A stretch of DNA of 64,000 nucleotides from a phage, in NCBI GenBank assembly GCA_024449565.1, contig GCA_024449565.1_4810.1; one strand, written 5' to 3'. The notes under the pieces are model-generated. The model ran no database searches, had not been told where the DNA came from, and saw only the letters and a list, made by a program, of their open reading frames with translations. How positions within the stretch are numbered: position 1 is the first letter of the stretch; each line of letters opens with the position of its first letter. The position numbers were made by a program, and so were the translations under genes. Below, piece after piece: positions 479-11,453 of the stretch.

Positions 479-1939
479 TTAAAGGTTAGAGAAGAAGCCG
501 GATGCTGCAACAATTGGTTTCATCAACGCCATGATTGCTGCGTCCGCTTTGTTAGGCGATTTGACTCCACGCTTTGCCATATCCTTTTTCGATTCAACTT
601 TAAACTTACCAAGCACAGACGTGTCTTTGCGCGGCGCTGACATCTCAAAAAGAAATGTCTCAATTTCTTCCGCAGACCAAGCAGGAATCCCAAGTTCTGG
701 AATGCCGTCTGTGTCGATGGAAATCAGCTCATCAGTCGGGTATACGGCCTGCCCTGTTGCATACTCATATGTCTTCCTGAATCGTTCGGCAATCTCAGTC
801 CATTTTTGCGCTTTTATGTTTGCGAAATGGTCTTTATTGAGTATTTCAACGTGTGGTAACTCAAGGAAGACGTCATCAGGATCATCAACAGCACCTTGCG
901 CGTTGAACGCATTAAATTCGATTCTTGGGAATGTTGGATTTTCATGGATTGCATACTCATTAAGCTCATCAAATTTTGAACCAGCAAATGCACCAACACC
1001 GATGGCGTCATAGGTAATTGATGCGCCGAATGTTAATGCATCTTTCCAAACTCCGCTTGCGGACTTAAGCAATTCATCTTCCAGACCTTCCCATGTCTTG
1101 ATGCCGCGCAATACGTTGCCCGTGACAAATGCTGTGGCGTTTAAGTCGTCGCCGTCGTCCGCCACGTCGAAGCCTATACGGTTAGACCCTGACAAGCTCC
1201 ATCCCAGCGTAGGGTGTTTGTGGAGGTTTAGCGCGGCTTTGACGAATGCACGGTTGATTACAGATTTGTCGCCGCCAGTCTTCGGAACGCCGCCATAAAC
1301 GTGCTCTGCCTTTTTTGGGTCGCGCTCGTACATGCCTGCGATAACGTCCAGCATTGTTTGCGACAAGAATGGATTATCTTGCCAGTTTATCTTTTTAACA
1401 ATGGCATTCTTCGGCGGTCGCATAACAAAGTTCTGGTAGACAAAATCGGCCTCTTCATCAGGGTTAAAGATGATCCATATTTCTGACCCTTCTTTACGGA
1501 TTGTTGGCTCAATAATGTCCCACTGTTCTTCAGTAAGCGCGTGCGCTTCTTCCAGCCAAAGTACGTCAACACCTTCCGTTGATTTGATTTCATCAACATT
1601 ACGTGCGATACCATAAAATAGAAATTCAGATTTAGTTCTTTTATGTTCGATAGAGTTCTTTAATAAATTGAACTCATCTTTGAAATCAGAAATTTCTATT
1701 TTGTCTTTTAATAGAGTATATACAGATTCAGAAATCTTGTTCTGGAATTGTCGAACGCAAAGGAATTTTAATTTGAAGTTTGCCGCCAAATAAATAGCAA
1801 AACCAGCGGCATCATGCGATTTGGAAGATGCACGACCGCCGTATATTACTTTGTATCGCGCTTTCGTCTTCCAGACTTCTTTTAAAGCAGGATTCAACTG
1901 GTACATGACTTTCCAATTATGTGTTAGTATTTTATTCAT
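479..1939 (-). CDS. terL: terminase large subunit
   Basis: 486 aa; N-terminal ATPase region (KVIYGGRASSKSHD Walker A-like, VLWLEEAH Walker B-like) and C-terminal nuclease-like acidic region typical of phage large terminases. Confidence 0.8.
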   Translation of the reverse strand: MNKILTHNWKVMYQLNPALKEVWKTKARYKVIYGGRASSKSHDAAGFAIYLAANFKLKFLCVRQFQNKISESVYTLLKDKIEISDFKDEFNLLKNSIEHKRTKSEFLFYGIARNVDEIKSTEGVDVLWLEEAHALTEEQWDIIEPTIRKEGSEIWIIFNPDEEADFVYQNFVMRPPKNAIVKKINWQDNPFLSQTMLDVIAGMYERDPKKAEHVYGGVPKTGGDKSVINRAFVKAALNLHKHPTLGWSLSGSNRIGFDVADDGDDLNATAFVTGNVLRGIKTWEGLEDELLKSASGVWKDALTFGASITYDAIGVGAFAGSKFDELNEYAIHENPTFPRIEFNAFNAQGAVDDPDDVFLELPHVEILNKDHFANIKAQKWTEIAERFRKTYEYATGQAVYPTDELISIDTDGIPELGIPAWSAEEIETFLFEMSAPRKDTSVLGKFKVESKKDMAKRGVKSPNKADAAIMALMKPIVAASGFFSNL

Positions 1940-3315: not shown

Positions 3316-3353
3316 GGTTATAATACGGTTGTCGACAAAACGAGGACCGTAAA

Positions 3354-5264
3354 ATGCCAAGGCTAATATTCAAAAACAACTTTGAGGTCGCGCTCGCTCA
3401 GCCAGCGACGACTTCAGACACCACAATCACAATCCGCTCAGGGTCGGGCTTTCCGACCTTGGGCGCAAACGAGCGTGTAGTGGCGACAGTCGTCGACGCT
3501 GCAACAGGCCTCCAATTCGAAATCATCACTGTAACAGCCGTGGTTGGAAACGTGCTAACCGTGCAGCGTGCACAGGAAGGGACTGCAGCGCGTGCATGGA
3601 GCGTCGGAGATTTTTTATCCATAAGGGTGACGGCTGCCATATTGACAAGCACAGTAAGGAATTTTGGAGAATTACCTTCTGGAATAAACTTAAATGCCCT
3701 TACTGGTTCTTGGTTCGGTCAATACCAGCAGTCTTCTAATTCTGCGGCTTCGCAAGTTCTGAATTATCCTGTAGCCCAATCAGGCAGCCTTGAGGTTATT
3801 TGCTCGGCAAACAACTCTGGTGACCAATCTTGCACGCAAATATACAGCACGAATCCTGACAACAAGCAGTACAAAAGAACTTATAATTCAGAAACAAGCA
3901 CATGGTCTACTTGGGCTAAAATATATAACTCTTCCGACGTGATTCCAGTCTCCAATGGAGGGACTGGTGTTTCAGACATAGGATCAATAAGAAGAGCAAT
4001 ATTGGTGCAAGGACTTGAATGTAATGATCAAACTGGTCCCCAATCATACAACAGCTATCGTTCACCAAATTCAGCATACACATGGAAAATAGATAACTCA
4101 GGACTTGTGCAAGTCATAAAGACTTCTGATGGTTCTGCAGTGCCAATACCTATTGAATCAGGAGGGACTGGTGGAATAACTGCTTATAGTGCAAGGGTTA
4201 ATCTCTCTTTGGATAGGCTGCGCCAAGAAGGTGCTTATACAGAACTGAATTCTGCGAACGGAAGATATAGATTTCTTGTAAATGATTCAGGAGATTGGGG
4301 AGGTTTTGATGGTTCCACAAACGGCTGGAAGCCATTGGCAATAGCGCAGGGAGGGACTGGATCAACCACGTTGGAAGGAGCAAGAACGAATCTGAAAATT
4401 GACAGGTTCTTGCAAGGTGATATTGATACAAAAATATCAACGCCTGATTCGCAATACAACTTTTTCATCACTGACGCTGATTGGGGTCTTTATGATGTAA
4501 CATCACTAAATAGAGTTGCACTCCCAATTGTCAGCGGCGGCACAGGCGGAGTAACTGCTGTTGAATCTTGCAAGTCTCTCGCAGCGATGCATTATAAATA
4601 CCCAGCGCAAACATCATTTGGGCAGCAATACATGGAGACTGGGGTTGGATATTACAGCACTGATCAGTCACCAAGTCCAGGTGGAAGCGGTTCTCCATAT
4701 AACTATGCCGAGATACTTACTATATCTGAATTTGGTAATGGAGCTAACTATTCTCAAATCGCATTTTCAGTGTTGACGGAACAACCGCCGCGATACAGAC
4801 AAAGGTTTGACTCTAATCCAAGGTTGACTAATTGGCGAGATTTCCTTATTCGCGATTTGAATACCAGCGTAGACAGCAACGGATTCATAAAAATTGCTTC
4901 ACCAATAGTCAAAATAAGATTTGATGGATCATTTGAGCTGAACAGCGAGTCAGAAGGCTGCACAGTGTCAAGAGAAGGAAAGGGGCACTATTTGATAAGC
5001 GGTTGCCTCGGATTAAATAGTGATGCCGCCTGGGGAGGCGTTAACGGCGGCTTTGAAATTCCAGTTGATGTGAATAAACAGCCTAGAATTTGGCTTGACT
5101 ATAAAGTGAATGAAGATGGATCAGTTGACGTATTCACATATCACAGGGTGCACAATGATGCCCCAGTTTTTGCAAGGAATAACCTTGAAGGTTATGCAGA
5201 CGGAGACCCAATAGACATACCAAAGGATGCATTTATCTCTGTGAGGGTGCAAATGCCAAAATAA
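3354..5264 (+). CDS. tail fibre-like protein with repeated GGTG motifs
   Basis: 636 aa; GAGGA RBS; four copies of [IV]xxGGTG[GAS]x(6-8)AR.NL motif typical of phage tail fibre shafts; Ser/Asn/Gly/Thr-rich. Confidence 0.7.
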   Translation: MPRLIFKNNFEVALAQPATTSDTTITIRSGSGFPTLGANERVVATVVDAATGLQFEIITVTAVVGNVLTVQRAQEGTAARAWSVGDFLSIRVTAAILTSTVRNFGELPSGINLNALTGSWFGQYQQSSNSAASQVLNYPVAQSGSLEVICSANNSGDQSCTQIYSTNPDNKQYKRTYNSETSTWSTWAKIYNSSDVIPVSNGGTGVSDIGSIRRAILVQGLECNDQTGPQSYNSYRSPNSAYTWKIDNSGLVQVIKTSDGSAVPIPIESGGTGGITAYSARVNLSLDRLRQEGAYTELNSANGRYRFLVNDSGDWGGFDGSTNGWKPLAIAQGGTGSTTLEGARTNLKIDRFLQGDIDTKISTPDSQYNFFITDADWGLYDVTSLNRVALPIVSGGTGGVTAVESCKSLAAMHYKYPAQTSFGQQYMETGVGYYSTDQSPSPGGSGSPYNYAEILTISEFGNGANYSQIAFSVLTEQPPRYRQRFDSNPRLTNWRDFLIRDLNTSVDSNGFIKIASPIVKIRFDGSFELNSESEGCTVSREGKGHYLISGCLGLNSDAAWGGVNGGFEIPVDVNKQPRIWLDYKVNEDGSVDVFTYHRVHNDAPVFARNNLEGYADGDPIDIPKDAFISVRVQMPK

Positions 5265-7039: not shown

Positions 7040-7069
7040 TGGGTGGATGTTGCTTTAACCGTGAATCGT

Positions 7070-7096
7070 GGGTCGCTTAGTGCGGCCCTTTATTTT
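7070..7096 (+). terminator. intrinsic terminator after the 6659-7039 gene
   Basis: gggtcgc/gcggccc stem (one G-U pair), loop ttagt, then tttattttg. Confidence 0.5.
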
Positions 7097-7098
7097 GC

Positions 7099-7174
7099 CT
7101 GCCGCGCAGGAGTGTACTGCCGCGCAGGAGTGTACTGCCGCGCAGGAGTGTACTGCCGCGCAGGAGTGTACTGC
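7099..7174. repeat. tandem repeat, 18-bp unit ctgccgcgcaggagtgta x4 plus partial fifth
   Basis: Four perfect head-to-tail copies at 7099-7170 followed by ctgc; each unit is a near-palindrome. Confidence 0.9.
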
Positions 7175-7551
7175 AAATTTCCTGTGGGTACAAAATAGTA
7201 CGGTACTGTCTAGGACTTTTTCTTTGAAAAGTTAGTGGACCAAATGTGTCGTATTTTGATTAGTGTACCGCAAATTCCATCAAGTAGCAAAACGCACCAA
7301 AAGACCCATGCCCTAAAAACCACACGAACGCAATAATCAATCGCCGTTACAGTTTCCAGCGTTACAATTAGAAAGCGAATGATTCGATGCATAATAATAT
7401 GAAGCATAATGATTCGAAAGCTAATGGTTGCGCGTAGGATGATATCGGGAGGGATTATTCGAGATGCGTGTAATTTCGCATGCGTACTATTTTCGGGCGA
7501 AGGGTCGGCATATTCTTCGTTTTAGCTCGGAACGAAGGGAAAGTTTTGCGC

Positions 7552-7628
7552 CTTTATAAAACAACGACTTACGCGACCCGCCTTAACGGTCCGATATAGG
7601 TGTCTATATAAAACAAGGACTTACGCGA
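7552..7628. repeat. two 25-bp direct repeats (ctttataaaacaacgacttacgcga / ctatataaaacaaggacttacgcga)
   Basis: Copies at about 7552-7576 and 7604-7628, 2 mismatches, inside a ~570-bp non-coding stretch. Confidence 0.7.
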
Positions 7629-7750
7629 TGTTCTCCATTTAACGTAATACCTGTTATGCGAACTAAGGCGCATCTCGACGAAGATTGTGCGACGACGAAG
7701 GGAAGGATAAAGGAGTTTTCGCGTAGGAGCTCATCGAGATAGGGACGAAG

Positions 7751-7772
7751 AAAAGCCGCGACTAAGCGCGGC
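7751..7772 (-). terminator. terminator-like hairpin downstream of the 7793-8083 minus-strand gene
   Basis: gccgcg/cgcggc 6-bp stem, loop actaag; T-run on the minus strand (aaaa on plus at 7751-7754). Confidence 0.4.
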
Positions 7773-7792
7773 CTATTAGTAACGGAAGGGTA

Positions 7793-8083
7793 TTATAAGG
7801 AGACGATTTTAAAGAAAGAGTAACGGCCTTCGCCTTCGGATACCGCGATATATTCGCCGCCGAACTCCGTAGCAAAATAAACCTTGCCTTCGATAGTAAC
7901 GCGGAAGGTAGAAATATCTTCCTCTTCGAGTTCCGTAAATTCGCTAAAATCGATAGGACTATGAAGCTCCTCGATAGTCGCATCTACGTTAAAGAGATAA
8001 ACGTTTTTAAGTTTTTCGCCAAATACGTTAGAGTTTTCGGAAGTTTCGACGCGAGCGGAACGGATAGCGGCCAAAGTAATCAT
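7793..8083 (-). CDS. small acidic protein, paralog family member 1 (96 aa)
   Basis: AGGAGA RBS; CpG-rich codon usage; aligns with the 8719-9003 product (IRxAxVE, VYxxNVDxTIE, C-terminal GxxYFxAxE). Confidence 0.6.
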   Translation of the reverse strand: MITLAAIRSARVETSENSNVFGEKLKNVYLFNVDATIEELHSPIDFSEFTELEEEDISTFRVTIEGKVYFATEFGGEYIAVSEGEGRYSFFKIVSL

Positions 8084-8190
8084 AATATTCTCCTAGTTAG
8101 TCGGGAGGGTAGCGACCTATTCGCTACCTCATCCCCTCTCGATATAAAACATTATAGTCTTAGTGTACGAAGAAGTAAAGCACTTTTTCG
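8084..8190 (-). promoter_or_regulatory. upstream control region with AGTGTACGAAGAAGTAAAG element
   Basis: 19-bp element at 8162-8180 recurs at 8560-8578 (direct) and 8621-8639 (inverted, 2-3 mismatches); ctcgata(t/c)aaa also shared with the 8494-8560 region. Confidence 0.4.
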
Positions 8191-8493
8191 TTATTCTGCG
8201 ATAAAATATTTATAAGCTTTATCGCCTTCTACGTCGATATACTCGACGATAATTAACGCTTCGCCGCGCGGCGTAACCGTCTCGATAAGGGTAACGGCTT
8301 CGTCGTCGGTCTTCGCGAAGCGGATTGCGCTACGTTCGGCGTACTTAATATCATCGAAGGAAAGGCCGACGAAAGCGACCGCGCGGACCTTAATAATGGT
8401 AGATTCTAGTTCCGCGTTAACGGCAGCGATAAGAGAGCGAACGGTTAAACGGTCTTCGTCGTAAGTAAGGATAGAAGAGATTAAAGTAGTCAT
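8191..8493 (-). CDS. small acidic protein, possible distant paralog (100 aa)
   Basis: Start moved to ATG at 8493 with GGAG RBS (MTTLISSIL...); the longer track ORF ends at 8550. Confidence 0.55.
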   Translation of the reverse strand: MTTLISSILTYDEDRLTVRSLIAAVNAELESTIIKVRAVAFVGLSFDDIKYAERSAIRFAKTDDEAVTLIETVTPRGEALIIVEYIDVEGDKAYKYFIAE

Positions 8494-8718
8494 AATAAAA
8501 CTCCCGATGCTAGTAGAAGGAAGGGCCATCACCCGTCTCGATACAAACAAGTATACGCGAGTGTACGAAGAAGTAAAGAAAAAAGATAAAATAATTTATC
8601 TCATTTTTATCGAAAAAGTGCTTTACTTTTTTCTACACTATATTATAATGTACTCATATCGGGACGGGATGAGTTAACGAATAGGTCGTTAACGCCCGTC
8701 GAGAACTAGGAGTTTAAA
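8494..8718. promoter_or_regulatory. divergent intergenic control region
   Basis: Lies between divergent starts 8493 (minus) and 8719 (plus); contains inverted pair of the AGTGTAC...GTAAAG element and a tattataat -10-like box. Confidence 0.45.
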
Positions 8719-9003
8719 ATGGCTATTCTTAACGTTTCTTCCATCCGTAACGCTATCGTCGAGAACTACGGCGTAAAACAAATTTTATCCGAAGTTTACG
8801 CCGCGAACGTAGACCAAACTATCGAGGCGGGTGGGGTAACGGTCGCCGAGGCTTTTAAACTTTACGCGGCGCTACCGGAATCGGACCGCGAAGCCTTCGA
8901 AGTAAACGTTAACGGATACTTCTTCGAAGCGGTCGAAATCGGTAACATCTTACTCGTTATGGGCGAAGAAGAATTTGATACCTTCTCCCTCGTCGAAGCG
9001 TAA
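8719..9003 (+). CDS. small acidic protein, paralog family member 2 (94 aa)
   Basis: AGGAG RBS; CpG-rich codon usage; homologous to the 7793-8083 product. Confidence 0.6.
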   Translation: MAILNVSSIRNAIVENYGVKQILSEVYAANVDQTIEAGGVTVAEAFKLYAALPESDREAFEVNVNGYFFEAVEIGNILLVMGEEEFDTFSLVEA

Positions 9004-9083
9004 GAGAGGATTTTTAGAGCGTCGTGCGCGGCGCTTTAATAAAATTCTTTCGCGCCTAGCGCCCTAACAAATAGGAGTTCATT

Positions 9084-9710
9084 ATGGTTAGCTTAAATCG
9101 TTTCTCGACTAGCGGCGACGTTATCGCAACTAAGACCGCCGACCTCGTTGCATTTTATAATGCAAATTCAGGTTCGAAGCCGATTAAAAAATTTGCGGAC
9201 CGCCGGACCGCCGAGACTCGCGTAATCGCGCTAATCGAGTCCTTAAACGCGCTCGATGAGCCGTCCAACGAATCGCCAATCCCCGACGCGAAGCCGCGCG
9301 AGGAAGTGTCCAGCGATGTAAAAACGCATAAGGCGCGTGCGGTCGTTAAAAAGGCAGAGCCGACGCAGGAAGAACTCGACGCGATGAGCGATGAAGAGTA
9401 TGAAGCCTTCGTTAAGAGCGGCTTAAACGATAGTGCAAATTGCGTAGTGCAAAATGGAACTCCTTCCCATCGCCGTTCGAATAGCGAAGGTATTGCAAAA
9501 AGTTGGGACAATAAGGAAGTGGCGCAAAAGCGTCTCACCCGTAACGGCGTTATGGTCGAGGGTGTAGGAGAGTTCAAATCGGTCCGCGCAGCTTTCGCCG
9601 CGCTGGGATTACCGGATAGCAAGCACATTCGCTTCCGTATGAAGCTTAAGGAAGCTGGGCGCTTGAACTTCGAGTTCGGCAACAAGTCCTTTACCTTCCA
9701 GATTATCTAA
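9084..9710 (+). CDS. hypothetical protein (208 aa)
   Basis: AGGAG RBS; CpG-rich codon usage; two internal copies of the TAGTGCAAA(T/A) motif. Confidence 0.6.
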   Translation: MVSLNRFSTSGDVIATKTADLVAFYNANSGSKPIKKFADRRTAETRVIALIESLNALDEPSNESPIPDAKPREEVSSDVKTHKARAVVKKAEPTQEELDAMSDEEYEAFVKSGLNDSANCVVQNGTPSHRRSNSEGIAKSWDNKEVAQKRLTRNGVMVEGVGEFKSVRAAFAALGLPDSKHIRFRMKLKEAGRLNFEFGNKSFTFQII

Positions 9711-9760
9711 TCGAATGGCGGCCCTTCGGGGTCGCTTTTCATAGTGCAAATTGGTGGCTT

Positions 9761-10024
9761 ATGAATACGCTTATTCTCATCGCTACGTTGTCCATCGGAA
9801 GTGGTCGCACCTTATCCCTTTATGACCATAGTGCAAATTGCGCCTATCCTACGCGCGTTGCGGCGATAGTTAATAGTGCAAATAAGATGCTATTCGAGAC
9901 TTGCTGGAGGGTCGATAACGAGAAAGGTCGGGTAGTCTTAGGCTATAGTGCAAATCTGCTGGTGGAGTCGTTCGATTGGACGGTTGAAGGTCGTAAATTG
10001 TTACGTAAAGTGACTAAAAGATGA
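9761..10024 (+). CDS. questionable ORF (87 aa) carrying three in-frame motif copies
   Basis: Weak RBS; three in-frame AGT-GCA-AAT (Ser-Ala-Asn) copies of the motif; may be non-coding. Confidence 0.3.
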   Translation: MNTLILIATLSIGSGRTLSLYDHSANCAYPTRVAAIVNSANKMLFETCWRVDNEKGRVVLGYSANLLVESFDWTVEGRKLLRKVTKR

Positions 10025-10085
10025 CTTATAATAATACACTTTCTAACGCGTTTATGGTTACAACCTTCCCCGTCGTATTACCGAT

Positions 10086-10125
10086 GGCCCTAGAAGTGGA
10101 GAAAATGTGTTCTAGGGCCGTTTTA
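10086..10125 (+). terminator. terminator-like hairpin (10-bp perfect stem) between convergent genes
   Basis: ggccctagaa ... ttctagggcc with 14-nt loop, then gtttta; immediately followed by a motif copy. Confidence 0.45.
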
Positions 10126-10138
10126 TAGTGCAAATTGG

Positions 10139-10612
10139 CTAGTGGCGGGAGAATTGCTCTCCTTCTTTGGCCGCCTCTCCAAAATCCTTGTAGAAATCAT
10201 CCATGGAACGGCCCATTTTACTATTGCCATTTTCATCAATCATCGTGATGCCGTAGATGATATTCAGTTCACGAATGGCATTAAGTTTGGCTGATGCCGC
10301 GACTTCTGGATCACGCACAAGCTTCACTAGATTGTGGATGGAACTCTTTACGCTCCACAATTCCTTCAATGGCATCTCTTCCATACGCTTTTTGTAGCGC
10401 ATCTTGTAGTACGGATTGCGCTGAGTGCACAGGATTCGCTGGCCAGTGTAGTTATCGGTCGCAACCTCCATGCCAAATACTAGTGCAAAAGCTGCGCGCA
10501 TGTCATGGCCTTGAATAACAAGGTCAATGAACTCATCGAATAATGCCTGATTATGCTCTGCAAATCGCGGGTCTTCAAAGTCTTCAGGCATTGCTACATA
10601 ATCTTGACTCAT
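10139..10612 (-). CDS. hypothetical acidic protein (157 aa)
   Basis: Start moved to internal ATG at 10612 (MSQDYVAMPEDFED...); two motif copies abut the start on the other strand. Normal (non-island) composition. Confidence 0.5.
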   Translation of the reverse strand: MSQDYVAMPEDFEDPRFAEHNQALFDEFIDLVIQGHDMRAAFALVFGMEVATDNYTGQRILCTQRNPYYKMRYKKRMEEMPLKELWSVKSSIHNLVKLVRDPEVAASAKLNAIRELNIIYGITMIDENGNSKMGRSMDDFYKDFGEAAKEGEQFSRH

Positions 10613-10693
10613 AGTGCAAATCCCATAGTGCAAATTAATAGTGTGAATTATACAATGAATGAACATTATATTCAAGTGCAGATTGATGTTCAA

Positions 10694-11453
10694 ATTGGCT
10701 GTAAACGTACATAAATCATAGTGCTAAATGAATAGCGGACCGTGATGCGTGGTGTACTGTTTGATACGTATAAAAGAAATCCATCCCTTTCGCCGCTTGC
10801 TATGCAAATCAATGACTTAGCCGCTGCTGGCTGGTTGAAGCGTATCATGACGTATCATCCGTATTGCCGCAAGTCTTTGTTTTTACTTATATCTTACGGA
10901 TAATACGTATAAATATAAGTTCAGTATAAGTATGAGGATGTAGAAAAAAATTAATTTAAATTAATTCAAAATGGAGTTAATTGTTTTTTTCAAAGTTGTA
11001 TAAAGTATAGCGGCGACGCGTATCATCCGTATCATCCGTAAGATGTACCATTGAACCCAGTCGCGGCGCACCATAGAAGTGTGTGGAGTGAACTACGGAT
11101 AGGTCCAAATCTTACGTCATTATACGTTTAAATTCTATGCGTAAGGTTAGCCAGCTAACTATATCTCCTTTTTAATTTCAAGCGGCAATCCCAGAGACGG
11201 CGCACCATGTACACAAACACACCACGGTACACGCTCCAATTCCTAGTGATTTCCTCTCCAATCCCACAACACCACAGTACAATAATCTTCCAAAACCGCA
11301 CACATATTCAAGACGCAAAATTCACGTCACAATCCTCACTACCAACGACACTCTAATAGATTTACACAAATCAATCGATTTATCCGATAATAAAGACTCA
11401 CATTCCACAGGCAAATAAAAAGGGCCAATCGGCCCTCTTAACATTAATCATAA
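10694..11453. other. 760-bp non-coding region with iteron-like repeats, AT-rich dyad and strand-skewed CA-rich tract
   Basis: No ORF of 60 aa or more on either strand; CGTATCATCCGTA-type repeats at 10841-10870 and 11018-11040; AT-rich tract 10943-10991; CCCAGnnnCGGCGCACCAT at 11056-11074 and 11189-11207; G-poor tract about 11208-11400. Confidence 0.5.
11408..11437 (-). terminator. intrinsic terminator downstream of the 11454-11906 gene
   Basis: gggcc/ggccc stem with T-run on the minus strand (ctttttatttgcctg). Confidence 0.5.

Follow-up and report, generated by a model that had tools for sequence, protein, structure and literature searches.

A conserved gene-free stretch in an E. coli Wifcevirus phage as the probable junction of unique DNA with the direct terminal repeat

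Genes are missing from positions 7040 to 7792 of the window (the whole stretch of 64,000 nucleotides analysed here, contig GCA_024449565.1_4810.1), which raises the question of what so conspicuous a gap does. The original prediction, made from the sequence and its open reading frames, described 7175-7750 as repeat-rich non-coding DNA inside an island, either a control region or a non-coding RNA (ncRNA). The window belongs to an E. coli myophage of the genus Wifcevirus, and 29 Wifcevirus records (E. coli and Shigella myophages) match the region at 90-96% identity. We find that the stretch is real, functional non-coding DNA and belongs to a known type of element, probably the chromosome-end junction of a phage with exact terminal repeats. 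By comparison with these relatives, the repeat-rich DNA is probably the junction of unique DNA with the direct terminal repeat (DTR) and would include the end site of the packaged chromosome; about 490 bp of the gap lie within the repeat and about 260 bp outside it. Of the two roles first proposed, the control region was borne out as a conserved cis-acting DNA element and the structured RNA found no support, and the gap is explained without a new RNA. Records of relatives already mark the repeat; the modest addition made here is a cut-site core found in two genera and the degree of constraint on the non-coding DNA. The genome papers of relatives consulted here make no mention of conserved motifs, a cross-genus core or non-coding constraint.

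Chromosome ends and the extent of the terminal repeat

The ends were read by comparing the two termini of the records that hold both copies of the repeat. These copies are identical at both ends of WFH (MK373776; 3701 bp), SP13 (3899 bp) and Ro157lw (3533 bp), and all end in ...GGGCATGGGTCTTT; the 3673-bp PhageTerm repeat of Mansfield (MK903282) has the same terminal base. Since the reverse complement of the GGGCATGGGTCTTT end is window 7300-7313, the right virion DNA end of this phage, which is also the inner boundary of its DTR, would lie between bases 7299 and 7300, as placed by homology to its relatives. Four of the five Wifcevirus determinations (WFH, SP13, Ro157lw and Mansfield) have their right end at the base homologous to 7299/7300, and all five have their left end at 10972/10973, with the start ATTTT(A/G)AA corresponding to window 10972 read leftward. 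The fifth, WFC (MK373777), has a deposited repeat of 3,784 bp whose end lies 81 bp outward of this base, near 7219; either the difference is real or the boundary was called less precisely.

From the mapping of the relatives' ends it follows that the window was assembled as a circle and that its repeat, present as a single copy, is 7300-10972 (3,673 bp). This length is in line with the published range of about 3.5-3.9 kb (PMC6563267, PMC6753283, PMC6753285), and terminal repeats of about 3.7 kb have been reported for Wifcevirus (Korf et al. 2019, PMC6563267; Mansfield announcement, PMC6753283). Because the island is this repeat, the stretch does not lie inside it, as had been predicted, and instead straddles its edge. 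The end base is the same while the repeats range from 3533 to 3899 bp and the genomes differ by about 1 kb; the cut is therefore set by sequence and not by head filling.

The true ends of this genome would thereby be fixed at window 7300 and 10972. Knowing them helps annotation and any attempt to reboot or engineer such phages. It also bears on how transduction risk is judged: packaging of host DNA should be far rarer in a phage with sequence-fixed cuts than in one that packages by headful.

Layout and constraint of the gene-free gap

The gap is bounded by intrinsic terminators on both sides, as first proposed, and the same two are annotated in relatives. The left insulator, on the plus strand at 7070-7088, ends a rightward operon whose genes run to 7039 and is annotated in WFH and WFC. 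The right insulator, on the minus strand at 7753-7774 (earlier given as 7751-7772), ends the leftward DTR genes 8191-8550 and 7793-8083 and is invariant in 23/23 genomes. The claim that no open reading frame (ORF) of 60 or more amino acids with a plausible start lies between the tandem repeats and the right terminator needs one correction, a 65-aa ATG ORF on the minus strand (7210-7407); it is without a Shine-Dalgarno sequence and is broken in 8/23 genomes. All other small ORFs in the gap are broken in 1-5 of the 23 genomes, and the variable columns show no three-base periodicity (the control gene was partly covered and was not usable as a control). The non-coding status therefore stands. Small protein-coding genes were rejected as an explanation, with each ORF broken in 1-8 of 23 genomes and no codon-like substitution pattern, and a tRNA/tmRNA scan gave no hits.

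Just outside the chromosome end, an 18-bp tandem array (CTGCCGCGCAGGAGTGTA; unit GCCGCG, 4 nt, AGTGTAC) occupies 7099-7174 with 4.2 copies. All 22 relatives and the metagenome contigs have 1.2 copies of this unit, so the 4.2-copy array is private to this phage. Mansfield has a private expansion of its own, about six GTGGGTC units some 30 bp upstream; DNA just outside the chromosome end seems to be prone to slippage. The tetranucleotide GTAC is denser here than anywhere else in the window (8 copies in 7114-7265 versus 2.2 per kb overall). The distal AGTGTAC motif lies outside the DTR at 7165-7171 (plus strand), the proximal motif, TTAGTGTAC, is at 7260-7268 (plus strand), and CGCACCA at 7293-7299 (plus strand) abuts the cut.

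Inside the repeat, three segments can be told apart. The terminal 67 bp (7300-7366) are nearly invariant, contain CCCATGCCC at 7305-7313 and CGTTACA at 7345 and 7360, and are C- and A-rich and G-poor on the strand read inward from the end. A variable, AT-richer spacer (7367-7475) follows and holds both copies of the duplicated word that had been noticed in the sequence, AATGATTCGA at 7378-7387 and 7408-7417. In phage Bas100, 7367-7411 is deleted and one of the two words is lost. The third segment is a conserved non-coding block (7476-7752) with two copies of ACGAAGGGAA (7532 and 7695) and the two 25-nt direct repeats on the plus strand (7552-7576 and 7604-7628, the second 52 bp from the first). 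These repeats are as first described: they match at 23 of 25 positions, are unique in the 64-kb window and were matched in none of 100 shuffles; across the sequences compared, they are specific to Wifcevirus. The CGAAGGG words at 7498, 7533 and 7696 were likewise found, and make up three of the four plus-strand copies in 64 kb; when the word is extended to the 10-mer ACGAAGGGAA and one mismatch is allowed, its window-wide count is not above chance. A 23-nt inverted repeat (7459-7481 and 7656-7678) has its right arm in the conserved block, and its left arm starts in the variable spacer. The region has no paralogous copy elsewhere in the window, and comparison with E. coli genomes and plasmids gave no similar sequence. 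The idea that TATAAAAC is a T4-like late promoter was rejected, there being no such family across the genome.

Conservation was measured as nucleotide diversity (pi) over 23 genomes, with the four-fold degenerate sites of eight neighbouring genes for comparison. Lack of conservation in related elements had been named among the outcomes that would speak against the prediction; the region proved strongly conserved. The gap is kept in 22/22 relatives and in 7 IMG/VR or metagenome contigs, mostly with no gene annotated within it. Diversity is 0.015 in the terminal 67 bp, 0.033 just outside the end (7175-7299), 0.035 in the conserved block (0.013 and 0.023 in the first and second 25-nt repeat, respectively) and 0.095 in the variable spacer, compared with 0.12-0.27 at the four-fold degenerate sites. 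The low values relative to these sites place the non-coding DNA under purifying selection, at about the level of first and second codon positions.

Among relatives, the neighbouring minus-strand gene 7793-8083 (96 aa) comes in two forms, with identities of about 98% and about 70-76% (the latter in most relatives), and the non-coding DNA that flanks it stays 95-99% identical. By this comparison, it looks like a mosaic replacement beside a conserved element. In six relatives there is an additional 69-aa gene next to it, named a 'transcriptional regulator' in some records and absent from this phage.

A core at the cut in two genera

A tblastn search with the small terminase (TerS) protein found Serratia phage MyoSmar (Myosmarvirus), whose TerS is 35% identical. 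MyoSmar has 17% genome-wide nucleotide identity to ECML-117 (PMC6753285), and its record gives a PhageTerm repeat of 3,559 bp. Its junction was built by joining the end of the record to its start, and reads ...TTAGTGTACgtgccaatccattttgtgtgaaatCGCACCA up to the cut and GCCCTTGCCC beyond it (in the longer form, ...CCAGTGTACgttttgttgacccaGCCGCGaatttAGTGTACgtgccaatccattttgtgtgaaatCGCACCA and GCCCTTGCCCAGACACC). The junction in the window reads ...GCCGCGcaggAGTGTACtgcaaatt ... gatTTAGTGTACcgcaaattccatcaagtagcaaaaCGCACCA up to the cut and AAAGACCCATGCCCTAAAAACC beyond it. Common to both, in exact register, is a core of TTAGTGTAC, 24 nt, CGCACCA at the cut and then CCC(A/T)TGCCC. In the window and in MyoSmar alike, 31 nt separate the end of TTAGTGTAC from the cut, and CGCACCA is identical and at the same position. 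There are further likenesses: MyoSmar has GCCGCG, 5 nt, AGTGTAC at the place equivalent to the 18-bp array, the distal AGTGTAC motif has a counterpart, CCAGTGTACG, in both MyoSmar and Serratia phage MTx, and the strand read inward from the end is C- and A-rich and G-poor in both Wifcevirus and MyoSmar. MTx has the same motifs, CGCACCA included, with one mismatch in the proximal AGTGTAC, and its PhageTerm boundary is 14 nt further in than that of MyoSmar. The DTR inner boundaries of Mansfield, WFH, SP13, Ro157lw, MyoSmar and MTx consist of homologous DNA that ends at a homologous base; the records of these phages mark the repeat only.

The significance of the core was assessed by in-register global alignment. 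The 40 nt outside the cut gave a score of 17 between the window and MyoSmar, against a null of 20,000 random pairs (mean -8.1, sd 3.8, maximum 8); the 40 nt inside the cut gave a score of 2 (p ~0.009). Unconstrained local alignment of the two junctions was not significant alone (73/1000 shuffles), so the case for a shared core rests on register. The signature TTAGTGTAC-N21-AAWCGCACCA, searched against IMG/VR, matched in Wifcevirus and Myosmarvirus only and gave no chance hits. Searches for more remote relatives in IMG/VR and metagenomes, whether with DNA patterns or with the upstream protein, returned same-genus sequences only. The inner 400-450 bp or so of the repeat, with the 25-nt repeats, were not found in Myosmarvirus, so that a link of this block to packaging is a guess.

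With the core there is a specific motif, open to mutational tests, that could account for chromosome-end cutting in these fast-growing coliphages, which are candidates for therapy. A more specific reading, which we regard as speculative and more doubtful than probable, is that AGTGTAC...CGCACCA at the cut is an undescribed Wifcevirus/Myosmarvirus terminase cut signal that makes the exact 3.5-3.9-kb repeats, and that the 450-bp block with the 25-nt repeats is a separate device of the injected end (a T5-like entry pause or end protection). If true, the core would enable exact repeats to be made by a terminase that has a reportedly headful genus, Pbunavirus, as its nearest sister.

Putative function and competing explanations

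The reading that best fits the locus, and a likely one, is a putative cis-acting region for terminase recognition and cleavage, which convergent terminators would shield from transcription. Terminase would recognise the AGTGTAC/CGCACCA core on concatemeric DNA and cut at 7299/7300 to make the right chromosome end, and replication or strand displacement across 7300-10972 would then give a repeat at both virion ends, as in T7- and T5-type phages. The inward-facing terminators would keep RNA polymerase off the cut site. The approximately 450 conserved bp within the repeat, which include the pair of 25-nt repeats at a 52-bp interval, are probably a protein-binding platform, which may be used in packaging termination or initiation, in handling or protection of the DNA end after injection, or in entry.

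We infer recognition by terminase at the core from the conserved motifs that abut the cut and from the TerS gene, which lies inside the DTR beside its other end (10142-10612, minus strand) and, being within the repeat, is present in two copies per virion. The gene was identified by its match to PDB 7UXE (E = 9e-33), the TerS of phage E217 (PMC9611059), and by the Mansfield annotation. Against the mechanism, E217 TerS did not bind DNA appreciably in vitro (PMC9611059), headful packaging without repeats is reported for the sister genus Pbunavirus (PMC12390725), and the two DTR boundary regions share no sequence of at least 10 nt. The large terminase (TerL) gene is at 479-1939 (minus strand; Pfam Terminase_3), about 8 kb from the TerS gene. 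PHROGs and Pfam searches of the genes in the repeat were uninformative.

The layout can be set beside known systems. In T7 and T3, the ends arise from sequence-specific cuts at both repeat boundaries and the repeat is duplicated; exact terminal repeats, ends fixed by sequence and cis elements beside the cut are features in common with the region described here. T7 differs in having a 160-bp repeat and processing coupled to transcription by T7 RNA polymerase, whereas the phage studied here has a 3.7-kb repeat, a site protected from transcription and a TerL of the Pfam family Terminase_3. Lambda cos comprises cosQ, cosN, cosB, repeated TerS-binding R sites and an IHF site, and resembles the region in having a cut site flanked by short repeated motifs; here, however, there are no cohesive ends and the motifs are unrelated. 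Each 25-nt repeat holds a one-mismatch match to the IHF consensus, which is at chance level (2 seen versus about 1 expected, and the two are copies of one another), and IHF boxes were rejected on this ground.

Three near-identical, strong sigma-70-type promoters lie elsewhere in the repeat (8151-8179 and 8550-8577 on the minus strand, 8622-8649 on the plus strand), each with GCTTTACTT ... TATAAT and then a conserved leader, ATATCG(A/G)GA(G/C)GGG. They are probably early promoters. GTACACT, the reverse complement of AGTGTAC, is in the spacer of two of the three, and the same -35 element, GCTTTACT, is also found ahead of the first gene in the repeats of MyoSmar and MTx.

The leading idea of the original prediction, a structured ncRNA transcribed from the stretch, is the least probable of the explanations that we weighed. 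What speaks for it is a long conserved gap without genes and a minus-strand fold slightly better than shuffles (z = -2.0); the plus-strand folding energy is unremarkable (z = -0.9). The covariance-model search that had been proposed as a check (Rfam) found no family at gathering thresholds, and at E-value ≤ 10 gave four weak matches of 12.6-17.4 bits against thresholds of 35-80 (at most 43% of them). Folding combined with conservation, the other computational check, turned up no compensatory changes in 107 consensus pairs on the plus strand or 119 on the minus strand across the 23 genomes (68 and 85 pairs, respectively, never vary); because the sequences are about 95% identical, the power to see covariation is low and an RNA is unsupported rather than excluded. 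No conserved sigma-70 promoter lies inside the stretch, the sole weak match (7369-7398) being in the variable part that is partly deleted in Bas100. The flanking terminators face inward, so they block transcripts from outside and are not the bounds of an RNA gene, and the best-conserved parts adjoin the chromosome end.

The remaining explanations keep the stretch as DNA and give it other tasks. By analogy with T5, it could be a DNA-entry pause site ('injection stop signal'), such that the repeat with its early promoters enters first and the block holds up transfer until the phage has made its early proteins. The same architecture is seen in T5 Repeat Region 3, a large and repeat-rich untranslated region that lies for the most part within the long terminal repeat and is proposed to contain the injection stop signal (bioRxiv 10.1101/866236). 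That region is conserved though adjacent coding DNA is not, and overruns into unique DNA by 270 bp, compared with about 260 bp here; in the window, the repeat also has three strong promoters of the early type and small genes of unassigned function. But the T5 region measures 1.2 kb and contains DnaA boxes in pairs, inverted repeats of 131 bp and numerous repeat families, all of them missing here: the stretch has no DnaA boxes (TTWTNCACA, ≤ 1 mismatch), its longest inverted repeat is 23 nt, and the two regions have no sequence similarity. There is also no report of two-step entry for these phages. We take T5 Repeat Region 3 as the closest analogue in layout, of which the region in the window would not be a member, and consider an entry pause unlikely. 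Operator sites for a phage regulator, or decayed copies of promoter leaders from duplicated early-promoter modules, are suggested by ATATCGGGAGGGAT (7442) and CATCGAGATAGGGA (7733), which resemble the early-promoter leader, by the AGTGTAC motif, whose reverse complement recurs in two early-promoter spacers, and by the small 'transcriptional regulator' gene next door in some relatives. However, no -35/-10 boxes lie upstream of the leader-like words, decay would not yield a pi of 0.035, and the regulator gene is missing from this phage and from most relatives, which makes this explanation very unlikely. Lower still we rank a replication origin, with the repeats as iterons beside an AT-rich unwinding stretch. 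The spacing of the two 25-nt repeats, 52 bp or about five helical turns, and the approximately 70% A+T at 7370-7420 would suit it, but there are two repeat copies only where three or more iterons are expected, DnaA boxes are lacking, the AT-rich part is the least conserved and is largely deleted in Bas100, and GC skew tracks gene orientation only.

The other DTR boundary (10972/10973), at the far end of the putative terminase-cleaved repeat, lies within a second gene-free gap of about 760 bp (10694-11453). This gap holds short tandem repeats: about 5 copies of ATAAGT, 2.3 of AAATTAATTC and 2.4 of CGTATCATC. Past about 11000 the sequence becomes hypervariable among relatives, only 24-38% of which align, with the exception of a 22-nt element, CCCAGTCGCGGCGCACCATAGA, on the plus strand at 11056-11077. 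This element contains CGCACCA and lies 83 nt beyond the boundary; it matches MyoSmar at 22 of 23 aligned bases, there 74 nt beyond the boundary, and a degenerate second copy is at 11190 in the window. In MyoSmar, GGCGCACCATAG forms an inverted pair around the other boundary (3559), at 3350-3361 (minus strand) and 3643-3654 (plus strand); in the window, both copies of this element are outside the repeat and in the same orientation.
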